Shown: positions 26,807-50,069 of the stretch, piece by piece
Layout: the number at the start of each line of letters is the position of its first letter
Position numbering within the stretch: position 1 is the stretch's first letter
IMG/VR virus record: IMGVR_UViG_3300010346_001238
Source of the DNA: an uncultured virus (IMG/VR IMGVR_UViG_3300010346_001238)
Lineage: Duplodnaviria; Heunggongvirae; Uroviricota; Caudoviricetes
Reading direction: 5' to 3' (one strand)
Length of the DNA stretch: 64,000 bases
Translations under genes and position numbers: made by a program
The notes under the pieces: model-generated
Told to the model about the DNA's origin: nothing
Seen by the model: only the letters and a program-made list of their open reading frames with translations
Database searches by the model: none

Positions 26807-27599
26807 ACTTCTATATTATACTATTCTTTCCCTATATGTCAAGTGTAAAATTATTAAACCCTCCCCGTGAGGGGCCTTATTCCTTCATTTCTTTTTTCGA
26901 CTCTCGGAGTGGGGGGCTATACCCCCAATAATTTTTTTAGACTGCGATAGGGGGGTTGCACTAAATATACCCCTCCTACTACCCCATTTTTAACTGGTGG
27001 TAGCCCTACTGATTACCCGTCAAGGTATTACTCGTGGCCTCGTCCCATTGAACCATTTAATCATTCATCCTGTCATGCCTCTGTCTTTTCATCCATTCAG
27101 ACCAACATTCATTCATCCTTTTACATATCTCTATTCAAAGCTGGTAGCTCTTTTATTTATTCCTATTAACCCCATATATCCATTTATCAATATATTCCTA
27201 GTCAAATTACCCTTTAATCCCTCATAATTAAACTCTTTTATTCCTATTCGCATAATTTATATCTCTCAATTCAATCCATATTCTCTTTCCCATTTACAAT
27301 CTATCCCTATAATAATATCCCCGCCTTTCAGTATATGTTTCATCTATCCTTATTTCATTCATATTCAAATTTCCATTATCCCTTTCCAAATATCACCACA
27401 TTTCACCGAATGTAAATAATATACCCAAATATCTATCAATTTACTTGACTTTCACCGAAAAGTAAATAATGTCCAGTATTTACTCTATCGAAATACTCGA
27501 GTTTCACCGAAAAGTAAATAATGTCCAGTATTTACTCTTTTTGTCCACTTTTGTCCAAACGTCGAGAATCTTGAACTTTTTGTACTTTTATTTGAAGAT

Positions 27600-27615
27600 T
27601 GGCACAAAACTTGCG
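27600..27615 (+). promoter_or_regulatory. sigma54-like -24/-12 site, one of about 7
   Basis: TGGCACAAAACTTGCG matches TGGCAC-N5-TTGC. Confidence 0.6.
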
Positions 27616-27741
27616 GCATAAATCTTGGCACAATTCTAGCTTTCCATTAGATTTCCTCAAAAAAGTAGGCGCAAAAAAAAGTATAAAAAAATGCTTTTTT
27701 CAGTTGACATTTTCGACTCAATATGGTAGCCTTTTTTCACA

Positions 27742-28185
27742 ATGAAAAAAACAAAAGCATTGGCCCACTGGGCCGAAGACATTAAACAAAACAGTCAGGA
27801 TATAAACAATATCCTGACGGAGGGTGCGGTTAAACCGCACGTCCAGACCCACTGGACCGACGTTGAATCCGGAAGGCACGGGCTAGCCGGATTGATTGTC
27901 CAGATTTTGGGCGCCAGCGGGGCTGTGTTCCCCGCCGGAATTGAAAGCACCGGGTTGCGGTCCGTTGCAATCGGCGGTGCGATGTTCACCGCCGAAATTG
28001 AAGGCGCCGTATGGCGCCATTTTTCCATCGGTTCGACCCGGTACCCCCGGCAGTCGATCCGGAACTATTTGTCGACATATATGGCTCAGGCCGGCATCGT
28101 CGGAAAAATCCAACTGACAAATAGTGAGGATAGAGGTCGCCCGTGTTGTAAACCACGGGCCAAATGGTATTTAATCGTCAAGTAA
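27742..28185 (+). CDS. hypothetical protein, GC-rich
   Basis: TTGACA promoter upstream, GC hairpin downstream. Confidence 0.7.
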   Translation: MKKTKALAHWAEDIKQNSQDINNILTEGAVKPHVQTHWTDVESGRHGLAGLIVQILGASGAVFPAGIESTGLRSVAIGGAMFTAEIEGAVWRHFSIGSTRYPRQSIRNYLSTYMAQAGIVGKIQLTNSEDRGRPCCKPRAKWYLIVK

Positions 28186-28472
28186 ACAATGCGACGGGGG
28201 GGGGCCTTGTGGCCCCCCGCTTTTCCCATCAAATCATAAGTCGTGCCAACCGGGGGGACAGCATATCCCGTGCCAACCCCCCTACCCCCCCCATACTATA
28301 AGTGCTTCTGATTCAACGATTTGCGACCACCCTCGACCGCCCCCTAAGCCGTTTAACATGCGGGGTCAACCTGGTAATAGGAAATTTATACGTATTCCTG
28401 TATATACGTTTTTCTGTACCGGGAATTTACTTAAAAAGGTGGGGATTTGAAAAAAAATCCGGGAAAAATTTT

Positions 28473-28811
28473 TTATGGGGAAGTTTTTATAAAATAGGAA
28501 TTATCATGTGGGGATTTATTGGGTAATTGGTAATTGGGGTCAAATTGGATATTAGCTAATTGTTCTTCATTAAAGATATATTTAAGGACGCTTACGGGGA
28601 ATGGTTTATTTAAGTAAGAATTTACATTTCTGGGCCATGAGATGGGGAAATTGGTGGAGGGGTTTACTTTATTATAATTGGAGACAAATACTTTAGAATC
28701 CTGCATTTGGAGCAATGTAATTTTACCATTTAAGTAATCGTTGACTGGTGGGCAATTAGAATTTTTTAGGATTTGTTCGGTATGATTTAAGTTAAGCGGT
28801 TGATTATTCAT
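28473..28811 (-). CDS. hypothetical protein
   Basis: ORF only. Confidence 0.55.
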   Translation of the reverse strand: MNNQPLNLNHTEQILKNSNCPPVNDYLNGKITLLQMQDSKVFVSNYNKVNPSTNFPISWPRNVNSYLNKPFPVSVLKYIFNEEQLANIQFDPNYQLPNKSPHDNSYFIKTSP

Positions 28812-28921
28812 AATATAAATTTTTAGTATATAAGTATTTAGGTATAAATATGGTAAGATTGGGGTAAAAAGAAGTAAATATGTAGATATTTATTGGTATA
28901 GATATATGAATATGTATATGA

Positions 28922-29440
28922 ATGGGTATGCGACTATTTACTACATCTACTAAGGATACATGTTGGCGGGATGCGTTAGCATGTTTATTGGAACTTGAGC
29001 CGGTGCGGGTACCTGATTTTGTTAAGCGGTATGGGAATCGGTATATGGATAAGACGAGGGAATGGTTAAAGAAGAAGCATAACAAGGGGATAGTTTACAT
29101 ACCGGCGAGTGCATTTATGGAGACTGGGGAATTGCGGCAGAATGGGCCAGTGGGGCCGGAGGGATATTCGATAGCGTATATGAATATGGTTAATGATGAA
29201 TCGGCGCATGCGGTAGTATGTTTTAATGGTGGGGTATTTTGGGATAATGGGGAGGATCGGAGTGCTGAATATACGCATATATCTGGATATTATGTGATAT
29301 ATGATTTGGGGGGATCTCCTGTAAAGAAGCATGAGCGACTGATGAAGCGGAGGGGTAAGAATGGGAATAGGCGAAGGAGGAAGAAGGGGTCCTACTCAGT
29401 TAAACAGAACCGCCATTTATTGTCGGGTTGGACGAGTTAA
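28922..29440 (+). CDS. possible papain/C39-like fold protein
   Basis: TCWRDALACLL...HAVV...WD gives C-H-D order. Confidence 0.55.
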   Translation: MGMRLFTTSTKDTCWRDALACLLELEPVRVPDFVKRYGNRYMDKTREWLKKKHNKGIVYIPASAFMETGELRQNGPVGPEGYSIAYMNMVNDESAHAVVCFNGGVFWDNGEDRSAEYTHISGYYVIYDLGGSPVKKHERLMKRRGKNGNRRRRKKGSYSVKQNRHLLSGWTS

Positions 29441-29453
29441 TTGACACACGACC

Positions 29454-31040
29454 CTAAAGGGTATTATTTTCATGGGTGATGAACTGTATTTTATCGATTA
29501 AGAAATATACTTTATTTTCGAAATTGGAGATACAAATAGTAGCTGCATTTAGGTATAGGAGTTTAATCCAGAGATAGTAGATACCGATAATTTGGTCATT
29601 AAGTTTAAGTTTTTTGGCATATTTTTCCCAGTTATTTTCGGCTTCTTGTCGGGCATTAAGGATAAGTTTAACGAAGGCGATTAGCAATTGGTCTAATTGG
29701 TCTTCGGTTGGATATTTAGAAGAATTAAACTTAATATTACTATTAGCGAATATTTCATTTACATTATTTTTGAAATATTCATTACAGGCTTGGTATCCTT
29801 CGGCAAAGGTCCATTGGACACCGGCGAGGAAAGTACTATCTAGTGGGATAGATTTATTTTTGACATAATCTTTCCAGCTTTGGACATATGTATTTTCGTT
29901 GATATATTTAATGAATTCTTCATATACTTGTGGTATGGAATAGTAAGTTGTCATAAAATTATTAATAACAATATAGGGCTGACAATTCGACTTTAGATAT
30001 TTCGGCAGGGATTACATCTAAATCATCATAAAGGATGACTTGCATGGTGCATTTATTTAATGTTTTAAACTCTGTAAAATAATAATCATTATGTTTTACT
30101 AAATACCTGAAGGCTTTAAGTTTACGTCTATTTTCTTGCACTTTGGGGTGTTGATTTGCCTTAATGATTTGGTCACGAATTTTCATTTTGAATTTTGGAT
30201 TTGAGTTGATTTAATTCTATTTTAATTTTGCTAACATTTTCTAAAATTAATTCCATGTCATATTTTTGACTTTCCAATGATTTTAGGATATGATTAAGTT
30301 TTGTTTCGGCGTCATGTAATTCATAGGATGGATTTTTCGTTGAATTTGGTAGTGGGGGATTTGCCTCTTGGTTTTTAGGGGGTTCTGATAAATTGTTATA
30401 ATGGGGTTGGAATTGTTTAGTTATTTCTTCGGAAAAAAGTTTTGTAAGTTCAATAATTTGTTGAAGTAAATTATCTTTATTTTTTAGAAAAATTTGGGTT
30501 TTAAGATGCAACAAATTATATTGATCGAATAGGTAGTTTATTTGGCCATTAATTTCTTTTAAATTTTTCATCCATTTTTTCATAAAGAAATTATTTTAGG
30601 GTAATATTTTGGAAATTGATTTTGTCCATGTATTTTTTGATAAATTTTTTATTGTATAGATTTTCTTTATATTCTTTGATGAATTTGGTAATTTTTTTAT
30701 TATCTTGATATAATTTAAGCAATTGTGTTAAGCGTGATTTCCATTCGGTTATTGTTTCGGGTGTCGTGATAACGATATGGAATTGGTTTGGGTCTTGGTC
30801 ATGTTGGATGGTAGTAGTAATTGATTTTTCATCAATATTTTTTATATTTTTCAAATGTTTAAAGAATTGGGTTAAGTCTTCATCTAATTGATAAAGATCT
30901 TTTATAGGGATTTCCGCTTTTGATTTGGGGTTAGGATGATATAAGTAATAGAGAGGGGATTGGGTATTAAAAGTACCTAAAAGGGTACAAGTGATACCTC
31001 GGTATAATTTGCGTTTTAGTTTATTTTTTGTAAATTTCAT
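29454..31040 (-). CDS. four hypothetical genes (29454-29954, 29962-30186, 30173-30583, 30591-31040)
   Basis: Closely packed co-oriented ORFs. Confidence 0.65.
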
Positions 31041-31447
31041 TTTTTATCTAACAATTTTTGTAGTTCGAGAATTTTTCGTTCTAATTCTTCGATACGTTCT
31101 GTTGGTGACTTGGTTTCGGGGGTTGGGGTTTGGGCAATTTTGTCAATTTTTTCTAATTGTTCTCGGGTTTTGGCTTTGATGTCGGGGAGTATGGCTGGGG
31201 GCGGGGCTTGCGGATTAATTTTGGAAATTTCATTTTTAATTTGCCCATTAAGGTCTTCGGAAATAATGATTTCGAAGTGGCAACCTTCTTCATTTATTTT
31301 GGCGTCGAGGAGCACTTGGGTTATGGCGTCGGTATCGACGATATTGCCGGTGGCGGCATCTTTTAAAGTTACGTAGGAAGGTTCCGGTGGTGTACCTAGC
31401 CGGTTAACTTTTCCATAATAATGTGCTAATTTTTTCATCTTTCTCAT
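31037..31447 (-). CDS. hypothetical protein starting at the end of the terminal CRISPR repeat
   Basis: ATG 31447-31445 abuts the degenerate repeat. Confidence 0.7.
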   Translation of the reverse strand: MRKMKKLAHYYGKVNRLGTPPEPSYVTLKDAATGNIVDTDAITQVLLDAKINEEGCHFEIIISEDLNGQIKNEISKINPQAPPPAILPDIKAKTREQLEKIDKIAQTPTPETKSPTERIEELERKILELQKLLDKK

Positions 31448-31847
31448 ACACTTCACTTTTTAGTTCGTTTGGGCGTTGCAAGATGCAGTTTTTAACACCA
31501 CACGAGTACGTCCTGTTGGACTCACATCACCTTTTAGTTCGTTTGGGCGTTGCGAGCAGCGTATGTTAGTCATGGCGGCACGCCATATAGCGGCTCACAT
31601 CACCTTTTAGTTCGTTTGGGCGTTGCGAGGGGTTGTAACTGATACACCACCATTGGCAATGCTGTCACTCACATCACCTTTTAGTTCGTTTGGGCGTTGC
31701 GAGACCGGCGACCAGGTGCAACTGCGCAAGACGGCCAGCCTCACATCACCTTTTAGTTCGTTTGGGCGTTGCGAGCGTCTGGCGCCCCCATGAGGCGCAA
31801 GGCGGCACCACCTCACATCACCTTTTAGTTCGTTTGGGCGTTGCGAG
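31447..31847 (-). CRISPR. CRISPR array, 6 repeats (36 bp) and 5 spacers (36-38 bp)
   Basis: Repeat (-) CTCGCAACGCCCAAACGAACTAAAAGGTGATGTGAG at 31521, 31594, 31668, 31740, 31812; degenerate copy (5 mismatches) at 31447 marks the distal end. Confidence 0.97.
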
Positions 31848-32091
31848 AGCTTCTCTGTAACGTCCTGTATTGCAATGCCGTCGTCCTGTCTTTGCGAGGG
31901 GCCACCGGATTGGTGGCGGTGAATGTGTCCACTGTGATAAGATGTTTGCACATCCTGTTCAGTAACAAACCCTTTCAGACTGCGAGAGCCTATCGGGTTT
32001 GGTTCACCACGTACCCGCTCGCAAACGGTATCGACATCGGCCCAACATCTTACGATTGTTGGTTTCCGCATCACGCTGGACAATTCCATCG
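31848..32091 (-). ncRNA. putative tracrRNA/leader
   Basis: GC-rich, hairpin-rich; CACATTCACC (31927-31918) can pair with repeat GGTGA-TGTG. Confidence 0.55.
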
Positions 32092-33574
32092 TTATGATGC
32101 GGACTTTTGGGGAATTTTTTCCCCGCTAACGGCATGTGATGCCGCCGCCATCCTTTCGGAAATTGTTTTATTTTTAATATTTATGGCTGCATTTACATCT
32201 CGATCATGTTTAGCGCCACAATTAGAACACTTCCAAATTCTGGTATTAAGATCAATATCCGTATTCATATGTTTACATGAATTACACATTATGGTAGTGT
32301 ATGATTCAATTATATCATAGACTTCTTTGGGCGTCAAGGACAAATTTGCTTTATCTTTAGTTTTGGCCTTGAATTCGGATATGGCGTGTTCTCGGGATAT
32401 TGTATTGAAAGACTTTTTTTGTTTTCCTTGTCCTTTAGCTAAAGTATGTAATTTTACATCACCGATGCCAATGACATCATAATTGCGAAGAAAATGAATA
32501 GCTAATTTGTGATAATAATCTGATTTGGCGTTTTTAAAATGTAATTTAATTTTTGCTATTTGTTTAGTAGTTTCCAGCAATCGTTTACTACGGAATTTTG
32601 CTTTAGTTCCCCGTTTCCAAGTACCATCTGGATTATAGCAATGGGGATTTCCTTTACGAAATTGTCGATCTACTTTTCTTTGCAATTTTCGCAATTTTTT
32701 CTCTAGGCGATTATCTTTAGAAAGACTTTTAGGAGTAAATTTTTCTCCATCGCTGGTTGTAATGGCGGATTTCATGCCGGGGTCAATACCTACAATTTTT
32801 TCTGTAGGGGGGGCCAAAATCTCGGGTAAAAACTGATTTATCGGCTTCAATGGTGCATGTAATATACCATCGCCCAATTGGATTTTTCTTTAAAGAAATT
32901 TGTTTAATTGTACTTTCTTGTGGCAGTGGGCGATCTTCGGTAATTTCTACTTGAGATAGACAGGGGGAACCGCACCATGATAAATCTACATATTTTCCAA
33001 ATGTGAAAGCCGAGGTTGATATAATTTGTTTTTGGATGGCCGAGGTTTGTCCTTTCTTTTTAAATCGGGGGGCTTGATGTACTCTTTTTTCCCATGAATT
33101 ACAGAAATCATCCCAGTGACGAAGAATACTGAACCCAATAGCAGAAGATCCATCTTTAAGAATATGATTTTTTAGGGTATTTACTTTTTCTCCGGCATAA
33201 AGTCGGGCGAGATGGATATTTGAAAATCTTCGGTATCGGGATCCATCTTTTCTACGTTTGATTGCGGTATCTTTTTCGATGCGTTTTGAAATAAATAATT
33301 CCAGTGCTTTTTCTATGGAAATATTTTCTTGTTCGGCCAATTTTTTTACTTCACCGGCTCGTCTGCCGGTTAGTTTTTTTCCGGCAAACATTTTTGCATA
33401 TTCATTAATAATGGATGCTCTGCGTCCATTTTTACATTCGTGAAGGGCATGTCGGGTATGTCTGACAAGTTCATTCCATAGGATTCTGCTTTTTGTTCCG
33501 GCGTTTTCCAGTGCTTGAAGCTGCACGGGGGTTGGCAGAAGAGCGTACGTATAATTTCTCGTCATTTTTTCCAT
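32092..33574 (-). CDS. compact type V (TnpB/Cas12f-like) RNA-guided nuclease, split by a frameshift at C7 (32807-32813); 493 aa if C6
   Basis: N-terminal YTYALLPT..Q..L, PRFKKK, GRWYI; RuvC-I GIDPG; CNSC..CSNC; RuvC-III DRDVNAAINI; adjacent to the array. Confidence 0.9.
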
Positions 33575-33613
33575 TGTCGTCAATATACTTTAATGGGGAA
33601 TGAAAGTCAAGGA

Positions 33614-33811
33614 TTATTTCAGAGTTTTTCCAATTGAAGGGTGGGATTTTACTCGGTTATGGATGAAATTTTTCAAATTGGCTTCGCAGGCCGTGAGGAA
33701 ATCTTCACTGACACGAGAGAACATTTTGGCTCGGGTTGGGGAGGGATTGGCTCGGGCAACTTCAAGGGCGAAGGCTTTTACTTTTGATGCACAAATGAGA
33801 TTATATTTCAT
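33614..33811 (-). CDS. putative histone-fold protein
   Basis: LICASKVK...RVSEDFL...GKTLK. Confidence 0.55.
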   Translation of the reverse strand: MKYNLICASKVKAFALEVARANPSPTRAKMFSRVSEDFLTACEANLKNFIHNRVKSHPSIGKTLK

Positions 33812-33926
33812 CCGGGTCTTTTTAGTTGGCAAATTACAAGATTCAATCATGTGGGAATTATACGTCATTTTATAAAATTGTCAACATAAATCTTATTTTT
33901 GTTGGATTTGGATATTATGTATTGAC

Positions 33927-34157
33927 ATGAAATCATTTCAAAAGAGCCGAGTAAAATTATTGGAAGAATTGATGGTTATTCTGGAAAATTCGAGCCTTCA
34001 ATTATTAGAAGACAAGTCGTTTGCGGGTAAGAAACAGCAAAGAAAATTGGAATTAATTCGTCGGGAGTTAGTAGAATTTATTGAAGAAATGGAACAGAAA
34101 GAGTGGGAAGAAAGAAAGCGGCGGAGGAGAAGAAATGAAAGAATTAATATTACTTGA
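33927..34157 (+). CDS. hypothetical helical protein
   Basis: ORF only. Confidence 0.6.
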   Translation: MKSFQKSRVKLLEELMVILENSSLQLLEDKSFAGKKQQRKLELIRRELVEFIEEMEQKEWEERKRRRRRNERINIT

Positions 34158-34277
34158 TTGGTGGTGTGTATATTATCCTTATTATTTGGCTTGGATATTA
34201 TATTGGATATTAGAATATCAATTTATCGCAAATATTATATACTCTTAATATATTTATATAAAATTGAGGAATTATAT

Positions 34278-35033
34278 ATGAAATTAAAAGATATTTTATT
34301 TGAAGCCATTGAAAGCCGAAATAGATATTTAGAAGCGGCTAAGAAAAAAAGTTCTTCGAAAAAAGAAGATAATAAAAAAGAATTGGAATTAGATGATACT
34401 TGGTCTTTTGAGGTGCCTCTTACGGCGAGGGATGTATATAATTTTTATTTTTTGCATGGAATTAAGACATATTTTTCTGAATTATTAAGGACGGATTTTG
34501 GCGAATTTTTATTTAAAGAATATTTAAATTATTTTAAGAAAAAATATGTAAAAACATTTAAAGAATTGATTGCTCGCCAAATTGCCAAGTATATGTATCG
34601 GGGAAGAATTGATCCGGATTTTCCTACTTTTGATGGTATAGATGTAAAAGACACTGAAAAAAATGTTGAAAAGTTGAGGCAAGTTTCTCCCTCGGAACTT
34701 TATCGATTGATGAGAAAAACTTTTCGTAGTGATATGATAAGGAGGAATGAACGGTGGGAAGAAATAGCTACGCATTATGAAATGTTAAACCGTTCCAGTT
34801 CGCCCAATGATATTTTATTGGCGATTAATATGTTAAATAATGCGGTGCATAATACACGGACTACAGTTATTGATAAGTTTCCAAATTATTATGGTGAATT
34901 AGATGCTGCGTTTAAAGAGGCGGCTACGTTTAAGGATTTAAATCAGTATATTGGGAAGGTAGATCGTGATCTTTGGAAATTATTTAGAAGTAGTGATTAC
35001 TTAGAGGAAAATTTATATAAAAATAATATTTGA
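34278..35033 (+). CDS. hypothetical protein, possibly virion-internal
   Basis: GAGGA RBS, MKLKDILFE start, HNTRTTVIDK motif. Confidence 0.75.
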   Translation: MKLKDILFEAIESRNRYLEAAKKKSSSKKEDNKKELELDDTWSFEVPLTARDVYNFYFLHGIKTYFSELLRTDFGEFLFKEYLNYFKKKYVKTFKELIARQIAKYMYRGRIDPDFPTFDGIDVKDTEKNVEKLRQVSPSELYRLMRKTFRSDMIRRNERWEEIATHYEMLNRSSSPNDILLAINMLNNAVHNTRTTVIDKFPNYYGELDAAFKEAATFKDLNQYIGKVDRDLWKLFRSSDYLEENLYKNNI

Positions 35034-35065
35034 TATACTGGCGGGAATTTTGGTATATTATAGTT

Positions 35066-35476
35066 ATGATATTTACTTTTAATAGTGTTATTTTTTCTGG
35101 AGCAATTGAATTAGAAATGTTGCTTGAGAATCCGGTTGCATTGGAAAAATATATAATTTCTGAATTGGTTTGGAAAAATGCAATAGAAGGATTTAATGCG
35201 GAATTAGAAAAACGGGGTAGGGTACTTGAAAGAATTGAAGATAAACATGTAGATATATTAAAACTAAAATATAGTAATAATCAATTATATTTGTGGATGT
35301 TGGTTTTGGAAAAAGACATTGAAGATATTAAAAACAATTTTTCATTTACTTACACGGGTGAAATAGTTTTAGAGAAAAATTCCGAATTAAAGGTTGAACG
35401 ATTAATTATTGGAGATATATTATATCAGAATGGTGGGGAGTGGAAAAATCTTTTGAAAAAGAGGTTGACTTTTTGA
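35066..35476 (+). CDS. hypothetical protein
   Basis: ORF with promoter. Confidence 0.6.
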   Translation: MIFTFNSVIFSGAIELEMLLENPVALEKYIISELVWKNAIEGFNAELEKRGRVLERIEDKHVDILKLKYSNNQLYLWMLVLEKDIEDIKNNFSFTYTGEIVLEKNSELKVERLIIGDILYQNGGEWKNLLKKRLTF

Positions 35477-35515
35477 GGGAGATGTAGTATATTTATAAAC
35501 AGTTCTTTGAAAAAT

Positions 35516-35922
35516 GGGCCTGACATGGATTCGATCTAAGGGAGGAGATATTTGATGCATGTAGAGGAAGATTGCTTGGCCTCTTAAAAAATGTAATCAA
35601 AAAAACAACTGCCAACCGATTAAACGAATTGGCCTCGGTGGATTTCTCTATGCCGCTTGTCGGCGTGGAGGAAACTGCTGGTGTTGAGCTAGCTTTAGCA
35701 TAACACCAAACACCCAAAGATTCTCGCTATGAGGGTGTTGAGCTAGCAGCGAGAAAACTGCTGGTGGTTAAAATTATCAGCGTGAAGGAATGGTCACTAT
35801 ATCATTCTATATCGTTTAGTTTGCTTATTATCGAACACGATGAAATCAAAAATAAGATAAACATGTAGATTCAGATTTTGATTCTTTTAGAGACCCGGGT
35901 TCGATTCCCGGCAGGTCCACCA
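35516..35922 (+). ncRNA. ssrA: tmRNA
   Basis: GGGCCTG/CAGGTCC-A-CCA acceptor with G3:U; GGATTCGA; T-arm; tag ORF 35611-35703 ending ELALA*. Confidence 0.95.
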
Positions 35923-36014
35923 ATTTTGGATGACGCCAAGCGTTATGCTTGGCGTTTTTTATGTATTTATTTGTATATAATATAATTATTGAATATATTT
36001 ATACAAAGAAAATT

Positions 36015-39000
36015 ATGGCAATTTTATTAAAAGATCAACTAAATAGGCGGCATTTTTTAAAAGAAATTTCATATTCGGGTCCTGTATTCGATGATGAATA
36101 TTATAGTAAAATAAGTCGGAATGAAATAATTCCTCGTAAGGGGGGAGTACAATTATTTTATGATTTATATGCTATATATAGTCTTTGGCGAGAATATGGA
36201 TTTGGGTTAATGTCCAAGGAATATAGACAAAAGGTTAGATCCAAAGATGCCACTGGAGAAGAATGGACTTCAACAGAACCTTTTGGTAGTATATTTACTC
36301 CATCGATACATCCCGACTCTCAGAGGATTATTACTAATTGTGCATTATATGCGATTGATGAATTTTTTAGTTCAGCAGTATATACTACGGGTAAAAACTT
36401 AGAAACTTATTTGCGACATGCTTTAAGGCAAGAATTTCGTTATATTGCTCAAGGTAAGTGTCCGTCATTACAAAATTTTGCCGGTGAAATTATTAGTATT
36501 CATGAAAGTAATGAATTACAATATTTTAAAGGGGGAAATGTGGTGGAAGAACGACCGTTTATAGATATACAGGAATTTGAAAAAGTATTAAATAAACATT
36601 GTTATGGGTTTTCGGCAGAAGAAATTTATAAATTATTAAATTTTTGGAAATTAGAAAATGGAGAATATACTGTTACAAAAGCAATTCATATCATTGATTT
36701 ATTATTGAAGGAATTAAAGAAAAAAAATCAAGATAGAGAAGAGGACGGGGAAGAGGAGGCACCGGATTTGCCAGATTTAGATGCGGGGATACATAATCCT
36801 TCTAGTAAATATTTTCAGAAAGACACGGATTTGGATCCTGAATATCAAGAATTTGATAAAAAATCTAAAGTGGCCCAGAAAAAAATTGAATTAAGTACAA
36901 AATTAAGAGATCTTTTAAGAGCGGGTAAAATAAGTAAATCCACGTATAAAAAATACATGGATCAATTATCTAAAACAAGGTTGACCGAAGGAAATATAAG
37001 TCTTTCTATAGTAAATAGAGTAGAAAATAATTTGGAACAGAGTGGAATTGGTTGGAAATTAATAGAAGATGCGTTTAATAAGTTACGATGGAGTTCAAAT
37101 TATGGGGGAATTGCGTGGGGCGTCGCAACGGCGGCATATTTAAGATTAAAAAAATCGATTGATAGTGGCGAAATAGTTACGACTCCTGAAGAAACAATGG
37201 AAATAATTGATTACATATATAGTTTGGAGCATAATACTGGAGCGTTACTTGATAAGGGGCCGATGTTTGTTACTCGTGTGCATTTGGATCGAAGGTTTCG
37301 AATGCAACATTGGGTCAATTTTATACCTTATGTATCCTTAAAAGTTAAGAAATTGTTATCATTTTATTCTCGTATTAATCCTCAAGCTAGAAAAGAATAT
37401 GCTATATATCAATTAAGAAATACTCCGGCAGAAGAATTTACTCCATTAGAAGTTGATCAATTAATTGAATTGGGATTCCAAGAAGTTCCGGAAAAAAGCA
37501 CGGATGTTACAAACCCAGAATATACATATAAAGAACCACGAAATGTAAAAAATAGATTTAGAATTCAAGTTAATTATAAAACGGATAAAAAACCGTTGGA
37601 AGAACCAGTATATTTAGAAATTAGTAAACATCGCAAAAAATATATTATCTCTCTGGAATTAGAACATAAATTCATTTATTTTAATACATTTGAAAAAGCC
37701 ATTGATTATTTATCTAACCGGACGGATTTAATAAGAGCAAATAAGAAGCTTCATAATGTAGATGAAGCACAAAAAAATAAGTTTATTAATAGTTATACCG
37801 TAATCAAATTGTCAAGGGAAAAAGAAGCCATTCTTTTAGATGAATGTAACATGGGATGGAAAGATCAAATGTATGAGGCGTATTTTAAAGGATATGTAAG
37901 ATTTAGAATGTATGCTTTTAGTAATGGATTATACATGTGTACTTTTAATAATTCGCCAACATTTAATGTTCTTTATTCATGGGAAGAAACTTTAAATTAT
38001 TGTAAAAAACAAACGATTCATGCAAAACCTCATCCGAACCCAGAAAAAATTAAGTCACAAATGACATTGCCGATGACGGATCGGCCTTATGCATTAGAAG
38101 AGGAACAAAAGGCTTCCATACAAAATTTAATTGCACAAACATTTGTACAAACATCTCAATTTCAATATAGATTTGTTCAAAATCAGGCTGGAGAATACAC
38201 TGTGTTTAGAAAAACAGATGTAAATGTTAAGCCAATGTTTTCAATTAAAAAACTTAATGTAGAAGGAAAGGATGATTATACAATATTCCACTGGTTATCT
38301 ACAAATTCTAAAGAATCTTATTCTTTTAATACTTGGGATGATGCATTTAATTTCTTATCCCGAAATATACACAAATTATCTTTAGCTAAAAGTTTATCAG
38401 ATCAGACTTCTCAAACTGCTCAAATTTCTTCTCCAATGGATTCTATATTTAATGAGACATTGCCGCCAAATGCAACAAGTCAGGCGTTATATACGGCTCA
38501 TGTGGGAATTGATGGTGGGGTTAAAAAGAGTATTCGTTTAACAGAGGAAGATGAATCAAAATTAGTTTCTGTTGGATTTGTTCCTAAAATGGTTGGGAAT
38601 GAAGTGTGGTATATACATAAATACAATAGTGATACTATAAAGTTTTATGCGGATGATAGTGCATTTATAATAAAAACTACGTATTCTGTTGGAAAATCTA
38701 AGATGAAAATTTTAGAAGCAATTAATTGGGCACTTACACATTACGCTAAAAACAGCGGAGCAACTTCTCCCGATTCATTAAGGCATACAACAATAGATGG
38801 AAGTCAAAATGTTAAAATGGGATCAATGTTTGAGAAACATATTACTAATGCAGGGTTCCGTTGGGATGAAAGTTCCAAATCATATATTGATGGAAATAAT
38901 AAGATTATAATCAATCCATTTCCAAAATCAACACTTTATATCGGTGATAAAATAATGACATTTAATGGATTGTTAGATTTAATTGAATTTGTAAAGAACG

Positions 39001-39023
39001 AATATCCCACACTTAAAAAATAA
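36015..39023 (+). CDS. large hypothetical protein (~1000 aa)
   Basis: Long ORF; HNTGALLDK motif. Confidence 0.85.
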   Translation: MAILLKDQLNRRHFLKEISYSGPVFDDEYYSKISRNEIIPRKGGVQLFYDLYAIYSLWREYGFGLMSKEYRQKVRSKDATGEEWTSTEPFGSIFTPSIHPDSQRIITNCALYAIDEFFSSAVYTTGKNLETYLRHALRQEFRYIAQGKCPSLQNFAGEIISIHESNELQYFKGGNVVEERPFIDIQEFEKVLNKHCYGFSAEEIYKLLNFWKLENGEYTVTKAIHIIDLLLKELKKKNQDREEDGEEEAPDLPDLDAGIHNPSSKYFQKDTDLDPEYQEFDKKSKVAQKKIELSTKLRDLLRAGKISKSTYKKYMDQLSKTRLTEGNISLSIVNRVENNLEQSGIGWKLIEDAFNKLRWSSNYGGIAWGVATAAYLRLKKSIDSGEIVTTPEETMEIIDYIYSLEHNTGALLDKGPMFVTRVHLDRRFRMQHWVNFIPYVSLKVKKLLSFYSRINPQARKEYAIYQLRNTPAEEFTPLEVDQLIELGFQEVPEKSTDVTNPEYTYKEPRNVKNRFRIQVNYKTDKKPLEEPVYLEISKHRKKYIISLELEHKFIYFNTFEKAIDYLSNRTDLIRANKKLHNVDEAQKNKFINSYTVIKLSREKEAILLDECNMGWKDQMYEAYFKGYVRFRMYAFSNGLYMCTFNNSPTFNVLYSWEETLNYCKKQTIHAKPHPNPEKIKSQMTLPMTDRPYALEEEQKASIQNLIAQTFVQTSQFQYRFVQNQAGEYTVFRKTDVNVKPMFSIKKLNVEGKDDYTIFHWLSTNSKESYSFNTWDDAFNFLSRNIHKLSLAKSLSDQTSQTAQISSPMDSIFNETLPPNATSQALYTAHVGIDGGVKKSIRLTEEDESKLVSVGFVPKMVGNEVWYIHKYNSDTIKFYADDSAFIIKTTYSVGKSKMKILEAINWALTHYAKNSGATSPDSLRHTTIDGSQNVKMGSMFEKHITNAGFRWDESSKSYIDGNNKIIINPFPKSTLYIGDKIMTFNGLLDLIEFVKNEYPTLKK

Positions 39024-40928: not shown

Positions 40929-41678
40929 ATGTATAAAAAATTAGGTGAAATAATTAATAAATCTAAATCTATAATTGCATTAACGGGGAATGGTATTTCT
41001 GTAAAAAGTGGAGTACCTGATCTTTATTCTTCTGATGCGTTATATTTTATTGAAAAATATAAAAATTATAAAATTGAAGAACTTTTATCTCTTCAAATGT
41101 TAGAAAAAAATCCCGAATTAGTTTTAACTTTTTATAAAGATTGGGCCAAAAAGGTTAATGAAAAAGAACCCAATGAGTCACACAAAATGTTGCGTCAATT
41201 AGAAGAAATGGGGAAATTGACATGGATTATAACACAAAATGTGGATAATTTGCATAAAAAAGCTGGTTCTAAACATGTAATAGAATTATTTGGGAATGTG
41301 ACACAATGGCGGTGTAGTGAACAATGTGGTGAAATATATACTTTTGACACCGCATACAAAATGTTAAATATAGATTCTAAACCCGAATGTACTCGATGTA
41401 AGAATGGTTATATTAGACCTGATATAGTATTATATGGAGAAGATATAGAAGAATGTACTGATTATATAGTAAGAAAAGAGATTCAAGAATGCGATTTAAC
41501 GATAACGATGGGAAATTCATTAGAAAATAGTATTATTTCTGAATTAATTCATGCAATTCCTAGTACTAATTCATTAGTTATAATAAATGAAAATAATACG
41601 CTTTTAGACCATCGGGCGGATTTGGTATTTAATGAATCTTGTGAAGAAGCGTTGAAAAATATTATAGAACTTTTTTAA
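40929..41678 (+). CDS. Sir2/CobB-family protein with catalytic His replaced by Phe
   Basis: TGNGISVKSGVPD, TQNVDNLH, ELFGN, Zn Cys pairs, RPDIVLYGE. Confidence 0.9.
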   Translation: MYKKLGEIINKSKSIIALTGNGISVKSGVPDLYSSDALYFIEKYKNYKIEELLSLQMLEKNPELVLTFYKDWAKKVNEKEPNESHKMLRQLEEMGKLTWIITQNVDNLHKKAGSKHVIELFGNVTQWRCSEQCGEIYTFDTAYKMLNIDSKPECTRCKNGYIRPDIVLYGEDIEECTDYIVRKEIQECDLTITMGNSLENSIISELIHAIPSTNSLVIINENNTLLDHRADLVFNESCEEALKNIIELF

Positions 41679-44175: not shown

Positions 44176-44249
44176 GCGGGTGTGGTGTAATGGTAGCCCA
44201 CCACCTTGCCAAGGTGAAAGTGAGGGTTCGATTCCCTTCACCCGCTCCA
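44176..44249 (+). tRNA. tRNA-Gly(GCC)
   Basis: Cloverleaf, CCA. Confidence 0.92.
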
Positions 44250-44261
44250 TTTAATAGGTAA

Positions 44262-44336
44262 GCACATGTAGCCTAGAGGTCAGGCAGAACCCTTCCAAGG
44301 TTCCTTACGCTGGTTCGAATCCAGTCATGTGCTCCA
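44262..44336 (+). tRNA. tRNA-Gly(TCC)
   Basis: Cloverleaf, CCA. Confidence 0.92.
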
Positions 44337-44555
44337 AATCAAACAAAAGATTCCACTTCAAAATATAGAATATGCCGAAGAAAAATATGGAAAGGGATTA
44401 GAAAAATTATACGAAAAAAAGTCTTGACCTTTTATGTGTGAAATGATAGAATGTTAGCAAGAATGAAATATTGGCATAATATGATAACAGTATAATAATT
44501 TTTAAAAATAGTTTTATCTGTTATTTTTATAAATTCGCATATATTTATTTTTGAT

Positions 44556-44629
44556 GCCGGATTGATGTAATGGCAGCCTGCTACTTTGGTACAGTAGAAG
44601 TTCGAGTTCGATTCTCGGATCCGGCTCCA
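44556..44629 (+). tRNA. tRNA-Thr(GGT)
   Basis: Cloverleaf, CCA. Confidence 0.9.
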
Positions 44630-44630
44630 T

Positions 44631-44722
44631 CGCACTGTAATGTAAAGAGCATCGTCGGTCTTATAAGCCGAAGCGCACCAGATAAGTGCCGAGTCTCGGG
44701 GCAGTACCGGGCAGTGCGACCA
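44631..44722 (+). tRNA. tRNA-Ile(TAT) with long variable arm
   Basis: cgcactg/cagtgcg, CTTATAA loop, CCA. Confidence 0.8.
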
Positions 44723-44727
44723 ATTTT

Positions 44728-45021
44728 ATGAGAAAAATATTAGTTATATCTGTATTGCTATTGACCATTATTGGTTGTAAACCTTCGGGTTGTAAACCAA
44801 AAGAGGTATATACAGAAAATAAATCTGATATAATTGTAACAAATGTTTTGGGACATAAATTTAGATTTATTTCACCAGAAATACCAAATGCAGATGGTAC
44901 AGCAAGAGCAGAATTATGGGAACGAATTGATCCGTTGGATACAAATCGTTGGTACACTCGGTCATTAAGTTCGCAAATTAGAACAAATGATGTTCCCATT
45001 TTTCATTCATTTCCGAGATGA
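44728..45021 (+). CDS. lipoprotein
   Basis: Signal peptide with IIGC lipobox. Confidence 0.7.
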   Translation: MRKILVISVLLLTIIGCKPSGCKPKEVYTENKSDIIVTNVLGHKFRFISPEIPNADGTARAELWERIDPLDTNRWYTRSLSSQIRTNDVPIFHSFPR

Positions 45022-45030
45022 ATGAATAAT

Positions 45031-45115
45031 GCCACTGTGGATAAGGGAAATTGGAACAACCGACTGACTCAAGATCAGTTATCCTTTGCACGTTCGAATC
45101 GGGTCAGTGGCACCA
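45031..45115 (+). tRNA. tRNA-Leu(CAA)
   Basis: gccactg/cagtggc, CTCAAGA loop, CCA. Confidence 0.8.
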
Positions 45116-45121
45116 ATTTAT

Positions 45122-45197
45122 TGCAGGATAGAGTTCTGGTGAACTCAGATGTTTCATAAGCATCTCTAGCTTGGTTCGATTCCAAGTCCTGCAACCA
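45122..45197 (+). tRNA. tRNA-Met(CAT)
   Basis: Cloverleaf, CCA. Confidence 0.88.
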
Positions 45198-45201
45198 ATT
45201 T

Positions 45202-45276
45202 GCCGGTGAAGCATAAATGGTGATGCGCAGGTCTTGTAAACCTGAGAATCCGGTTCGATTCCGGGCACCGGCTCCA
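45202..45276 (+). tRNA. tRNA-Thr(TGT)
   Basis: Cloverleaf, CCA. Confidence 0.92.
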
Positions 45277-45291
45277 TAATTAACGAAAATT

Positions 45292-45365
45292 GCCACATTC
45301 GTATAACGGAATTATGCATCTTTCGTAAAGATGAGACGGGGGTTCGACTCCCTCATGTGGCTCCA
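45292..45365 (+). tRNA. tRNA-Thr(CGT)
   Basis: Cloverleaf, CCA. Confidence 0.92.
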
Positions 45366-45369
45366 ATTT

Positions 45370-45436
45370 TACTCGTTAGCTTAATGGCAAAGCATCGGAA
45401 TTTTCCGAGATATTGGCTCTAATCCAATACGAGTAA
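45370..45436 (+). pseudogene. tRNA-like element with collapsed anticodon loop
   Basis: All four stems intact; anticodon loop 4 nt or less; no CCA. Confidence 0.7.
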
Positions 45437-45439
45437 ATT

Positions 45440-45515
45440 GTCCCGGTGGCCGACTGGGGAAGGCGGCTCTCTGCAAAAGAGCATTAGGTGGGTTCGATTC
45501 CCACCCGGGACTCCA
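45440..45515 (+). tRNA. tRNA-Cys(GCA)
   Basis: Cloverleaf, CCA. Confidence 0.92.
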
Positions 45516-45576
45516 TTATTCTTCTAAATATTTTTTCTATTTTTTTAATATTTCAATATTATACTTATTAGTATAT

Positions 45577-46857
45577 ATGAATAATGACATAGCAGTTATA
45601 TCGACATTTTTCAATCCTCTAAAATATAAAAATCGTTATGAAAATTACTTAAAATTTCAGGATTTTATATATGAATGTGGATTAAAAGATCATTTTTATG
45701 TATCGGAAGTATTATATAAAAATGATGAACCATTTATCAATCATAAAAATATATTAAGATTTAAAACTGAAGATATTTTATGGCATAAAGAACGAGCGTT
45801 AAATTTAACTGTAAAAACTCTTCCAAAACAATATACTAAAGTTGTCTGGGTTGACACTGATATAATTTGGTCCAATATAAATTGGTGGAAAGAAGTTAGT
45901 AAATTATTAGAAGAATATAATATAATTCAACCATTTGCTTATTGTAAATTTTTAAATTCCCATTTTAATTTGGATCACACTCAAATGTCCATATTTCATA
46001 GATTATTCCGAATAAATAATGGATTGCCAACGTTTCATGCTATTCATTATGGTGGAACAATGGCTTATAATAGAAAATATTTTGAATGCGTTGAACTTTA
46101 TGATAAAGATATAATTGGAGGAGGGGATTTTATATCAAATATATCGATATTAAAAATGCCTATAGATGAAAATGTTCAAGCGTTTGATCCTGAATTAGAT
46201 TCATATATTGAAAAATCGGGTAAATATTTAGAAAACAAATATCATTATTTAGATGATTCAGTTTATCATCTTTATCATGGTCAGCTTCATGATCGTCAAT
46301 ATATAAAGAGATATTCTATTCTTAAAAATTATATTTTTAATGATATGTGTGAAAAGGATGATAATGGGTTATATAAGTTTAAGTCAACTGTTTCACAAAA
46401 AATAAAATCACAATTTTTAGATTATTTTAAAACTAAAAATGAGGATTTAATACAATTTATTGTTTCTTTAAGTAAGTCATATAATATTGAAAGAAGTTCA
46501 AATGGAAATTTCAAATGGATTTCGGCTGAAAATATATATGAATTATATAATTTAAAAAGTATTAAATTAAAAGTTAGTCGAATGGGGAATTCTAATACCT
46601 CTCCATATTTAAATGTTATATGTAATGGAAACTTTAAACATTATTCGCTAGATTTAAATAAAGATACTGAAATCATTATTCCTGTTTCTGATAAAAAAGA
46701 AGTATCTAAACTTATTCTTTTAGGAAAAGGATTTGTACCTGCCGAAATAGATTTAAACAGTCGGGATTTTCGCCAATTATCTTATGCAATTAAAAAAGTA
46801 GAAATTTTACAACAAAATAAAACAGAATATGAAAATTATTTATTAGAAAATTTTTAA
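45577..46857 (+). CDS. GT-A-fold glycosyltransferase-like, paralog 1
   Basis: WHKERALN, WVDTD, GGGD, HLYHG. Confidence 0.8.
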   Translation: MNNDIAVISTFFNPLKYKNRYENYLKFQDFIYECGLKDHFYVSEVLYKNDEPFINHKNILRFKTEDILWHKERALNLTVKTLPKQYTKVVWVDTDIIWSNINWWKEVSKLLEEYNIIQPFAYCKFLNSHFNLDHTQMSIFHRLFRINNGLPTFHAIHYGGTMAYNRKYFECVELYDKDIIGGGDFISNISILKMPIDENVQAFDPELDSYIEKSGKYLENKYHYLDDSVYHLYHGQLHDRQYIKRYSILKNYIFNDMCEKDDNGLYKFKSTVSQKIKSQFLDYFKTKNEDLIQFIVSLSKSYNIERSSNGNFKWISAENIYELYNLKSIKLKVSRMGNSNTSPYLNVICNGNFKHYSLDLNKDTEIIIPVSDKKEVSKLILLGKGFVPAEIDLNSRDFRQLSYAIKKVEILQQNKTEYENYLLENF

Positions 46858-46861
46858 TATT

Positions 46862-48133
46862 ATGAATAATGACATAGCAGTTATATCGACATTTTTCAAT
46901 CCTTTAAAATATAAAAATCGTTATGAAAATTACTTAAAATTTCAGAATTTTATATATGACTGCGGATTAAAAGATCATTTTTATGTATCGGAATTATTGT
47001 ATAATAATGAAGAACCGTTTATTAATCATGAAAATGTAATCAGATTTAAAATGGAAGATATATTTTGGCATAAAGAACGAGCTTTAAATTTAACTGCAAA
47101 AATACTTCCAAAACAATATTCCAAAGTTATCTGGGTTGATGCCGATATGATTTGGTTCAATAAGAATTGGTGGAAAGAAGTAAGTAAATTATTGGATGAA
47201 TATAATGTAGTTCAACCATATTCAAGCTGTCAATATTTACGATCTAATTTTAGTACTGAAAGAAAAACTAATTCGGTATTATTTTATATATGTCAAAATA
47301 ATTTTAATGAAAAGGGATTGGTAGGTGGAGCGATGGCCTATAAACGGGAATTTTTTGACACGATTGGATTATATGATCGGGCAATAATGGGTGGCGGAGA
47401 TATAGTATCTATTATGCCCATATTAAAAACTACTATTCCAACAAAATATGCATATTTTGATTTAAAATTGAATGAATATTTAGAAAAAGCAACTCAGTAT
47501 ATAAATAACCGATATTATTACTTAGATGAATTAATTTGTCATTTATATCATGGACGAATATTTGATCGGGGGTATAAAGATCGATATAAAATGAATGAAA
47601 ATTTAACATTTGATGATTTATGTGAAGTTGGAGAAAGCGGATTGTATAAATTTAAATCAAATGTTACAAAGATTGTAAAATTTAATTATATTAAATATTT
47701 TGAAGATAGGAATGAAGATTGGGAGCAACTAATTTATCCATTAAATAAAAGATATATGATTGAAAAAAATATAGATGGATCATTATATAAATGGTATGCC
47801 CCAACAAGTGTATTTGAATTGAAGAATATAAAAAGTATTAAACTACAAATTGATAGACGAGGAAATCCATATACTTCTCCATATTTAAATGTCATAGTTA
47901 ATGAAAAATTTAAGCAATTTGCATTAAATTTAGAAAATATTACCGAAATCATTATTCCTATATCTGAAGTGGAGCAAACATCTAAACTTGTTTTATTAGG
48001 AAGAGAATTTATACCTTCACGTACCTCTTTAAATAGTAATGATAATCGTTATTTATCTTATATAATTAATAAATGTTGGATATTGCCAAATGGAAAAATA
48101 AATTATGAAGAATACCCAATAGAAAATTTTTAA
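46862..48133 (+). CDS. GT-A-fold glycosyltransferase-like, paralog 2
   Basis: WVDAD, GGGD, HLYHG. Confidence 0.8.
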   Translation: MNNDIAVISTFFNPLKYKNRYENYLKFQNFIYDCGLKDHFYVSELLYNNEEPFINHENVIRFKMEDIFWHKERALNLTAKILPKQYSKVIWVDADMIWFNKNWWKEVSKLLDEYNVVQPYSSCQYLRSNFSTERKTNSVLFYICQNNFNEKGLVGGAMAYKREFFDTIGLYDRAIMGGGDIVSIMPILKTTIPTKYAYFDLKLNEYLEKATQYINNRYYYLDELICHLYHGRIFDRGYKDRYKMNENLTFDDLCEVGESGLYKFKSNVTKIVKFNYIKYFEDRNEDWEQLIYPLNKRYMIEKNIDGSLYKWYAPTSVFELKNIKSIKLQIDRRGNPYTSPYLNVIVNEKFKQFALNLENITEIIIPISEVEQTSKLVLLGREFIPSRTSLNSNDNRYLSYIINKCWILPNGKINYEEYPIENF

Positions 48134-48135
48134 AT

Positions 48136-49419: not shown

Positions 49420-49439
49420 GAGTTGAAATATTAAAATGG

Positions 49440-49607
49440 GAGTTGACATTTGTGAAAAGTCTGATATAATGAGAGGCGAAAATTGAAATGCCAAAGAAAA
49501 ATTGAAAAAAAAAAATCGAAAAAGAGTTGACATTGATTAAAAGTCTGGTATAATGGTTGGCGAAAATTGAAATACCAAAGAAAATTGGTAAAAAACAAAA
49601 ATTGAAC
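49440..49607 (+). promoter_or_regulatory. two tandem ~85-bp promoter units
   Basis: gagttgacatt..aaaagtctg.tataatg..gcgaaaattgaaat.ccaaagaaa twice. Confidence 0.8.
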
Positions 49608-49624
49608 ACTATTTATCTGGTAGT

Positions 49625-49729
49625 ATGAGAAATCGATTACAAAAACGGAATAGAGCCGAGGGCGATTGGACGCTCAATAGTAAGAGTGTCTCCATTTATA
49701 ATCGTCCAGAAGGGAGGCTCTCGACGTGA
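49625..49729 (+). CDS. putative 34-aa attenuator leader peptide
   Basis: MRNRLQKRNRAEGDWTLNSKSVSIYNRPEGRLST*; last codons overlap the antiterminator arm. Confidence 0.6.
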   Translation: MRNRLQKRNRAEGDWTLNSKSVSIYNRPEGRLST

Positions 49730-49753
49730 TGTAATACGATACATGCCGTCAAT

Positions 49754-49785
49754 GAGAGCCGAACCAAAAAAGGTTCGGTTTTTTT
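49754..49785 (+). terminator. intrinsic terminator with competing antiterminator
   Basis: gagagccgaacc-aaaaaa-ggttcgg-T7; the 5' arm also pairs with ggctctc 49716-49722. Confidence 0.85.
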
Positions 49786-49847
49786 GTTGACAAAAAACTG
49801 GATTTGTGGCAAAATGGATTTGTGGCAAAATTTGGATGGGTTTTAAT

Positions 49848-49979: not shown

Positions 49980-49991
49980 ATGGGATGTAAT

Positions 49992-50069
49992 GGAAGCGAA
50001 GCTCATAAGGATGAGCACCCGGCTTTTAACCGGGTGGCAGGTTGGGTTCGAATCCCCCCGCTTCCACCA
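49992..50069 (+). tRNA. tRNA-Lys(TTT)
   Basis: Cloverleaf, CCA. Confidence 0.88.

Follow-up and report, generated by a model that had tools for sequence, protein, structure and literature searches.

The window analysed here is a stretch of DNA of 64,000 nucleotides from an uncultured virus of the class Caudoviricetes (IMG/VR record IMGVR_UViG_3300010346_001238). Near its middle, three elements follow one another on the minus strand: a gene for an RNA-guided nuclease of the TnpB/Cas12 superfamily, a structured non-coding RNA that we read as a guide scaffold, and a CRISPR array. The nuclease has a rearranged RuvC active site, in which the place of the catalytic Glu of the second motif (RuvC-II) is taken by a Gly and another Glu stands further along the chain. 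In addition, its reading frame is shifted by one base between the two halves of the protein. The coordinates of these elements and of other features of the window are collected in Table 1.

In the list of open reading frames (ORFs) made with translation table 11, the nuclease gene appears as two overlapping ORFs, which are the two halves of a single TnpB-family protein. The protein obtained by reading through the shift is called P0001 below. Its residue numbers count through the frameshift, GGCC being taken as one step, and its true start may be the ATG at codon 4 or 7. The family HTH_OrfB_IS605 is found on the N-terminal ORF with 23.2 bits (Pfam cut-off 21), while OrfB_IS605 and Cas12f1-like_TNB are found on the C-terminal ORF with 39.4 and 53 bits (cut-offs 30.5 and 26.3). 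The nuclease also passes the NCBIfam model guided_TnpB, with 132.3 bits for a cut-off of 100. It remains below the cut-off of 350 for IS607_TnpB (70 bits) and far under the same value for C2c8 (74 bits), and its best PADLOC model is Cas12u4 (105 bits). By these family scores and by its fold, described below, the nuclease is a member of the TnpB/Cas12 superfamily.

Table 1. Position of the nuclease gene, its active-site residues, the scaffold RNA, the CRISPR array and other features in the 64,000-nucleotide window
Feature	Position	Strand	Remarks
TnpB/Cas12-family RNA-guided nuclease gene	32092..33583	-	496 aa (P0001) if the +1 shift is read through
ORF 1, WED/REC N-terminal half	32783..33583	-	266 aa; out-of-frame end PPYRKNCRY, then stop
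ORF 2, nuclease C-terminal half	32092..32877	-	261 aa
Run of 7 C (GGCCCCCCCTAC), +1 frameshift	32807..32813	-	between the N-terminal half and RuvC-I
Asp267, RuvC-I	32782..32784	-	in DPG motif (VGIDPGMK)
Gly374, canonical place of the RuvC-II Glu	32461..32463	-	YDVIGIGDVKL
Glu426, shifted catalytic Glu	32305..32307	-	IIESYTT; six residues ahead of the first CxxC
C4 zinc finger, Cys433, Cys436, Cys452, Cys455	32218..32286	-	between Glu426 and Asp462
Asp462, RuvC-III	32197..32199	-	HDRDVNAAINI
G+C-rich structured non-coding RNA	31853..32110	-	read as an omegaRNA/tracrRNA-like scaffold
UUUGCGAG	32018..32025	-	pairs in the predicted fold with the repeat-like CUCGCAAA at 31898-31891
Degenerate repeat-like stretch in the leader	31863..31898	-	first 18 nt match the repeat at 13/18 positions, by eye
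CRISPR array	31447..31847	-	6 repeats of 36 nt, 5 spacers of 36-38 nt
tmRNA	35516-35922	+	ARAGORN prediction, tag ANRLNELASVDFSMPLVGVEETAGVELALA; ~1.9 kb upstream of the nuclease gene, opposite strand
Sir2-family ORF	40929-41675	+
ArdC-N-like anti-restriction ORF	50320-51627	+
Macro-domain ORF	54961-55515	+
33 tRNA genes, most amino acids	17255-63673		densest at 44176-63673

P0001 belongs to a tight family. Twenty-one homologues of 450-612 aa share 39-75% identity with it (E 3e-245 to 5e-90), after which the next matches are ordinary TnpBs at E ~1e-23. Several of these homologues lie on contigs of 98-364 kb. An exhaustive search of 1.84 billion representatives gives 44 proteins at E <= 1e-30. 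At the level of loci, a metagenome scan from which 79 loci were kept contains only two family members, L001 and L002, which come from two other assemblies. In a scan of 185,579 species genomes, the best 80 loci are all ordinary TnpBs (24-35% identity) and none belongs to the tight family. The IMG/VR scan with one of our alignments (A1) gave 37 pattern matches, of which none was confirmed.

The Asp residues of RuvC-I and RuvC-III are both present in P0001, as Asp267 and Asp462. At the canonical place of the RuvC-II Glu stands Gly374, and Glu426 follows after exactly 52 residues. In profile alignments with the solved ISDra2 TnpB, the Glu of IGTEHL is matched by Gly374 and the Pro of VSPYFPSSQ by Glu426. 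A previous interpretation made from the letters of the DNA (the sequence-only reading) had recognised this pattern, namely a Gly instead of the catalytic Glu in VIGIGDV, a Glu about 52 residues later at the usual position of Pro, and two intact Asp residues. All three statements agree with the alignments, even if the codon of Asp267 falls outside the range of positions that was assigned to the feature. Gly374 and Glu426 are invariant in all 22 rows of the close family alignment. They are also invariant in the 52 rows of a wider alignment, whose members go down to 25% identity. Just six of its columns are invariant, and conservation is 90% or more for Asp267, Asp462 and the four Cys. Among the 138 relatives that have the four columns filled, drawn from the listed matches of at least 330 aa, 66 have Gly with the shifted Glu and 72 have the canonical Glu; where the shifted Glu would stand, these 72 carry R, P, K, A, Q, T, C or G. 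Given the invariance of the two residues and this split of the relatives, the shifted-Glu pattern is not a chance occurrence.

The same arrangement is known from Fanzors and related TnpBs, as the sequence-only reading had proposed. Fanzors and a group named “TnpB2” have Pro or Gly in place of the RuvC-II Glu and a conserved Glu about 45 residues further on; the mutation E467A of ApmFNuc abolishes cleavage, TvTnpB is active, and neither enzyme shows collateral activity (PMC10530073). In the structure of Fanzor2 (ApmFz2) determined by cryo-electron microscopy (cryo-EM), the catalytic triad is D324/E467/D501, with E467 lying 50 residues past the canonical place, and the branch with a shifted-Glu active site is placed separately from the Cas12 CRISPR nucleases (PMC11832414). 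According to a 2026 bioRxiv preprint, the residue at the canonical place in Fanzor2 is G416, and TnpBs usually have Pro at the shifted one. Finally, several clades with a rearranged RuvC-II have been described, of which the largest, RIIr-5, has Gly instead of Glu and a new Glu on strand beta5, as in RuvX; the altered motif is ascribed there to “TnpB (or Cas12)” and 40 new V-U groups are listed (PMC10691335). Thus, the shifted-Glu active-site type itself is already known, with activity demonstrated for Fanzor2 and TvTnpB. A paper on Cas-delta and a structure-led preprint were set aside, having no bearing on the arrangement.

A published signature of pro-Fanzors, DPG-x(120,160)-E-x6-CxxC-x(12,18)-CxxC-x(4,8)-D (Yoon et al., PMC10711439), fits P0001 over residues 267-462. 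It fits 19 of the 22 family members (the others being P0005, P0008, and P0022) and none of 99 ordinary TnpB matches. Of 121 representatives with a length of 330 aa or more, 14 fit with DPG and 3 with DxG, which means that many shifted-Glu relatives fail the strict spacings of the signature. Eight further loci fitting a loosened shifted-Glu pattern with DxG were rejected as lying outside the P0001 clade. In a FastTree phylogeny of 132 rows, one branch with a Shimodaira-Hasegawa-like support of 99 parts 60 shifted-Glu rows from 72 canonical ones. The rows of this tree are the matches most similar to the query, reference Cas12 and Fanzor sequences being absent, the two trait columns are kept in, and six family rows (P0004, P0006, P0007, P0010, P0012, and P0015) are left out. 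The nearest relatives of P0001 therefore share its arrangement and split from the canonical TnpBs, in line with the distinct TnpB branch that had been suggested for the enzyme.

An AlphaFold2 model of P0001, built with the 52-row alignment, has a mean predicted local distance difference test score of 91.3 and a predicted template-modelling score of 0.83. Its fold is of the TnpB type, with WED/REC followed by an RNase-H-like RuvC domain in which a zinc finger is inserted. In the model, strand beta1 (263-268) holds Asp267, strand beta4 (370-375) ends at Gly374, Glu426 comes right after strand beta5 (420-425) and a helix (461-484) begins with Asp462. This topology agrees with what is described for the rearranged clades in PMC10691335. 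The best Foldseek matches, all at probability 1.00, are 8iaz, 8h1j, Cas12p, LaTranC, Cas12f, and Fanzor2. The target-normalised template-modelling score (TMt) is 0.78 for the ISFba1 TnpB, and Fanzor2 (9b0l) is at rank 9. Fanzor2 9b0l is also found in the profile search (rank 7 or 8), where profile positions 251-478 match positions 312-513 of the chain. From these matched ranges and from the shared E-x6-CxxC motif, Glu426 would be the equivalent of the shifted Glu of Fanzor2. A position in which Glu426 joins the two Asp residues would fit the predicted topology, the invariance of the residue and the Fanzor2 precedent.

The sequence-only reading had also called the effector CRISPR-associated. 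Indeed, the array adjoins the gene on the same strand, the first repeat lying 245 nt past the stop codon. This interval has a G+C content of 52% vs. 37% for the gene and corresponds to the scaffold. The RNA from 32110 to 31817 folds with z = -4.95 and none of 200 shuffled sequences folds as well. A second allele of the scaffold, with six changes, is present in contigs of two DNA runs and of one RNA run. On the predicted fold, two of these changes make a compensatory replacement of C-G by A-U (31996/31971), two others convert U-G into C-G (31992) and A-U into G-U (31963), one adds an A-U pair (31975) and the last is in a loop (31947). The changes at 31992 and 31963 keep pairing only on the minus strand. 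The existence of a structured RNA on the strand of the nuclease gene is therefore well supported. Rfam gives no match over 31300-34000. The DNA of the scaffold is homologous to a C-terminal extension of about 100 aa carried by most homologues, and here this region is interrupted by three stops and a change of frame. Conservation thus probably concerns the RNA, which in the relatives overlaps with an ORF, as it does in TnpB elements. Contigs from RNA libraries cover 31527-31629 and 31818-32218 in run X15, and 31746-31847 and 33339-33553 in run X16. Contigs of two DNA runs match just 31880-32107 with unlike sequence on both sides, which points to a related scaffold in another genomic context within the same communities.

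The leader of the array contains a degenerate copy of the repeat, which was also found as repeat family D2 (76% over 21 nt), and the real CRISPR repeats open with the same 7 nt as this copy. By its predicted fold, the scaffold could thus plausibly pair in trans with the CRISPR repeats. Five of the six repeats are identical and the distal one has five mismatches. The repeat alone folds into a stem of 6+4 bp (z = -3.85) and has no match in IMG/VR. All five spacers are unique, with a G+C content of 45-75%. The window has spacers S1-S5, L001 has S1 and S3-S5, and L002 has S3-S5; these differences between samples may be due to gain or loss of spacers or to assembly collapse. Spacers 1 and 2 have 75% and 69% G+C, vs. 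about 35% for the window, so that either their targets or the origin of the array may be sought in far more GC-rich DNA.

We consider it likely that the locus is a miniature type V-like CRISPR module carried by a huge phage, with a TnpB-superfamily effector of the Asp-alternative Glu-Asp (D-altE-D) type. In the active site, Glu426, at the end of beta5, would supply the carboxylate, with Gly374 in the usual place of the Glu, Asp267 on beta1 and Asp462 on the helix. Guide RNAs would be made from the minus strand, the structured scaffold of ~250 nt coming first and the repeat-spacer units next. The first 7 nt of the 36-nt repeat hairpin could pair with UUGCGAG of the scaffold, so that an omegaRNA would in effect be split into a trans-activating CRISPR RNA (tracrRNA) and a CRISPR RNA (crRNA). 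By analogy, the enzyme would be expected to cut double-stranded DNA as directed by its guide, next to a short flanking motif, and to show hardly any or no collateral cleavage of single-stranded DNA. In this lineage, the fixed extra C parts the N-terminal half from the nuclease half, and a full-length protein can be made only if the frame slips by +1 on CCC-C or if the insertion reverts.

Several observations weigh against this reading. At the level of the gene, the nuclease ORF is broken by the run of seven C in the window as well as in L001 and L002, and contigs from two DNA runs of two studies span 32041-33700 without any indel. No intact near-identical protein was found in a search of 5.8 billion clusters, where the best full-length match is 75% identical. 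An effector of the Cas12 type requires an intact ORF, and a +1 frameshift is what is found here. The slip site has no obvious stimulator, the next zero-frame codon being UAC, and the three tRNA-Pro of the phage (CGG, GGG, and UGG) have ordinary 7-nt anticodon loops with G37, none of them being of the suppressor type. At the level of the RNA, a duplex search for an anti-repeat gave no signal, the best duplex on the minus strand reaching -22.5 kcal/mol vs. a mean of -23.9 for shuffled repeats, and RNA-library contigs can derive from carried-over DNA. As for the array, no protospacer was found for any spacer in 50,697 phage records or 72,556 plasmids. In IMG/VR, no match exists for the whole of spacer 1 or for a 24-nt piece of spacer 3 or of spacer 4, and the five spacers have no match with up to six mismatches in the window and 161 loci. 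There is no cas1, cas2, or cas4 within the 64 kb. Finally, the CRISPR linkage is seen in a single lineage, that of the window, L001 and L002, which is the only one of the family whose surrounding DNA was compared.

The frameshift, which the sequence-only reading had overlooked, is real and fixed in every assembly and contig examined. With six C instead of seven, the gene would read in frame as ...FGPPTEKIVGIDPG. Once the shift is read through, P0001 is free of further interruption, and the 21 homologues read without a break across the point of the shift. The slip site CCC-CCC-U would let tRNA-Pro re-pair in the +1 frame, and the junction peptide predicted for the read-through protein is ...RDFGPPTEKIVGIDPGMK (FGPPTEK). 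Contigs of the RNA runs stop short of the C run and are uninformative on slippage. The locus is present in sludge and digester metagenomes, 14 DNA runs from 10 studies holding at least 88% of its sampled words. One related protein with the sequence GPPLQKKL, as would result from a run of eight C (P0142), was discarded; it has other frame changes and probably comes from a noisy assembly. Alternative genetic codes fail to account for the short ORFs of the window. By analogy with Fanzor2 and TvTnpB, the nuclease family is very probably catalytically competent. The sequence-only reading had held the enzyme to be active rather than dead. This stands for the family, given the invariance of the residues and the published experiments, but it does not carry over to this copy with its fixed frameshift; that this copy yields an active enzyme is somewhat doubtful.

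The alternative that the locus is a relic has a chance only a little short of even. The one-base insertion would have killed the effector, and the scaffold and the array would persist without function in a successful phage lineage. The fixed run of seven C, the lack of an intact near-identical protein and of spacer targets in the collections searched, and the absence of adaptation genes from the window all go in this direction, as do the three stops and the frame change in the region matching the C-terminal extension of the homologues. However, the chain of P0002 (478 aa), the nearest relative that is intact, stops at the same point, and the short C-terminus is thus not a sign of decay. Apart from the extra C, both halves are clean ORFs with all catalytic and zinc-binding residues intact, and the sequences of the window, L001 and L002 do not differ anywhere in 31853-33583, with no accumulated damage; this very identity means that selection on the broken gene cannot be gauged from these three sequences. 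The compensatory change between co-existing alleles of the scaffold, the differences in array content among samples and the coverage of scaffold and array by RNA-library contigs also speak against a locus that has lost its function.

Two other explanations appear improbable to us. According to the first, the change from Glu to Gly would have truly inactivated the enzyme, leaving a protein that binds or silences DNA under RNA guidance in the way of Cas12m, Cas12k, or TnpB-derived regulators. The canonical RuvC-II Glu is indeed absent, and inactivated TnpB derivatives are common (PMC10691335). Nevertheless, the replacement Glu is as invariant as the Gly throughout the wider alignment, with both Asp residues highly conserved, the same arrangement makes up the cryo-EM triad of active Fanzor2, where it is required for cleavage, and the modelled position of Glu426 at the end of beta5 is that of the published rearranged models. 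It is just as hard to believe that the gene is an ordinary transposon-borne TnpB lying by accident beside an unrelated CRISPR array. Such a view can draw on the Pfam, NCBIfam and PHROG names, which are “transposase” or TnpB, and on the single lineage from which the linkage is known. Against it, gene, scaffold and array are contiguous on one strand, with the array downstream as in type V systems, and the repeat-like copy of the leader pairs by its 5' end with the scaffold while the real repeats share its first 7 nt. Moreover, the 95 ORFs of the window yield no score for any family of TnpA, serine recombinases or Y1 transposases, and the tight family is missing from the best 80 loci of the species-genome scan, which makes it unlike a spreading insertion sequence (IS).

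Outside the CRISPR module, the window consists mostly of small genes of unknown kind. Large sets of tRNA genes together with a transfer-messenger RNA (tmRNA) are typical of huge phages. The tRNA genes of the window include, besides the three tRNA-Pro already named, two for tRNA-Met and four for tRNA-Arg, and with the tmRNA they make up a context that fits a huge phage. The genes that could be named encode a Sir2-family protein, a macro domain, an ArdC-like protein, Hsp20 and a methyltransferase. Those for the Sir2, ArdC-N-like and macro-domain proteins look like genes of host takeover or counter-defence. The nearest related virus record, G001 (101.8 kb, 29% complete according to CheckV), contains neither Cas1 nor any part of 27000-39000 of the window and is thus uninformative on an insertion of the module. 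Its own TnpB-like ORF, about 400 aa long (C1:83416-84096, minus strand; loci L080/L081), is of another, ordinary kind, with E = 1.5e-13 to the family profile. Neither Pfam nor PHROGs gives a match for three ORFs in tandem at 45577-49419 (+), of 426, 423, and 427 aa, which may be paralogues. An ORF of 1024 aa at 35949-39023 (+) likewise has no family match in Pfam or PHROGs. Two related ORFs at 60322-61152 and 62683-63546 (+) have weak PHROG matches to Holliday-junction resolvases or HNH endonucleases; they flank tRNA-Ala genes and may be homing-endonuclease-like.

If the locus is a CRISPR module as we propose, what is new here is the link of a shifted-Glu enzyme with a CRISPR array and a scaffold in a huge phage, together with the fixed frameshift. 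So far, the shifted-Glu RuvC has been tied to transposon TnpBs and to eukaryotic Fanzors, and it goes with target cleavage minus the collateral cutting of single-stranded DNA (PMC10530073). A CRISPR-linked representative would mean that CRISPR systems drew on the shifted-Glu branch as well. An effector of compact size (about 500 aa) would be gained, possibly with a different cleavage profile, and the scaffold, the pseudo-repeat of the leader and the array would offer a concrete case of the passage from an omegaRNA to a tracrRNA and a crRNA. This significance has to be read with the frameshift of the present copy in mind. We found no description of a CRISPR-linked shifted-Glu effector in open-access papers and bioRxiv, and such a group may already be catalogued among the V-U groups of PMC10691335. 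One may go further and suppose that a type V effector was born independently out of the shifted-Glu, Fanzor-ancestral TnpB branch, at a locus that may preserve the splitting of an omegaRNA into a scaffold and a repeat array, and in which the CCC-C frameshift would perhaps be a throttle or switch of expression. This extended scenario is tentative and, in our view, rather unlikely. Were it true, a CRISPR nuclease of about 500 aa devoid of collateral cleavage would be expected.

Compared with known systems, P0001 shares with Fanzor2 ApmFz2 (9b0l) the D-altE-D type of RuvC site, the Gly and Glu being 51 residues apart in ApmFz2 (G416/E467) and 52 in P0001. Both also have a DPG motif in RuvC-I, a Glu six residues ahead of the first CxxC, a length of about 500 aa and a TnpB-like fold (Foldseek E = 4.7e-13; query-normalised score, TMq, 0.54). 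However, the two proteins are only ~15% identical. The source of ApmFz2 is a giant virus infecting a eukaryote; the protein bears a nuclear localization signal on an N-terminal extension and uses a single omegaRNA in a transposon context, whereas the window belongs to a phage with bacterial-type tRNAs and a tmRNA, where guides would come from a CRISPR array. Fanzors are proteins of eukaryotes or of their viruses, and bacterial-type tRNAs, tmRNA, array and a nearest virus record of prokaryotic type place P0001 elsewhere. The TnpB2 group with TvTnpB, the RIIr clades and the pro-Fanzors have the same rearrangement as P0001, and RIIr-5 also shows Gly for Glu with the alternative Glu on beta5. These are described as transposon genes of IS605 or IS607 elements, beside TnpA and with one omegaRNA, whereas the window has no TnpA and shows a six-repeat array after the gene in a huge phage. 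According to Yoon et al. (PMC10711439), pro-Fanzors are known only from cyanobacteria. In the strict sense, they are encoded by cyanobacterial IS607 elements with a serine-recombinase TnpA, and here no recombinase is found and the context is that of a phage.

With the ISDra2 TnpB (8h1j and 8exa), the likeness lies in the order of WED/REC, RuvC and zinc finger (TMt 0.71, profile E = 7e-33). ISDra2 TnpB for its part has the canonical Glu in IGTEHL, a Pro at the place of Glu426, a single omegaRNA and a strong collateral activity. The organization of the locus resembles that of Cas12f, V-U4 and TranC systems, which also have a small TnpB-like effector, an array downstream, a scaffold or tracrRNA in between and no cas1 or cas2. 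Likewise, the best PADLOC model is Cas12u4 and LaTranC and Cas12f are among the best fold matches. Unlike P0001, the canonical sequences that were aligned all keep the RuvC-II Glu at the beta4 position.

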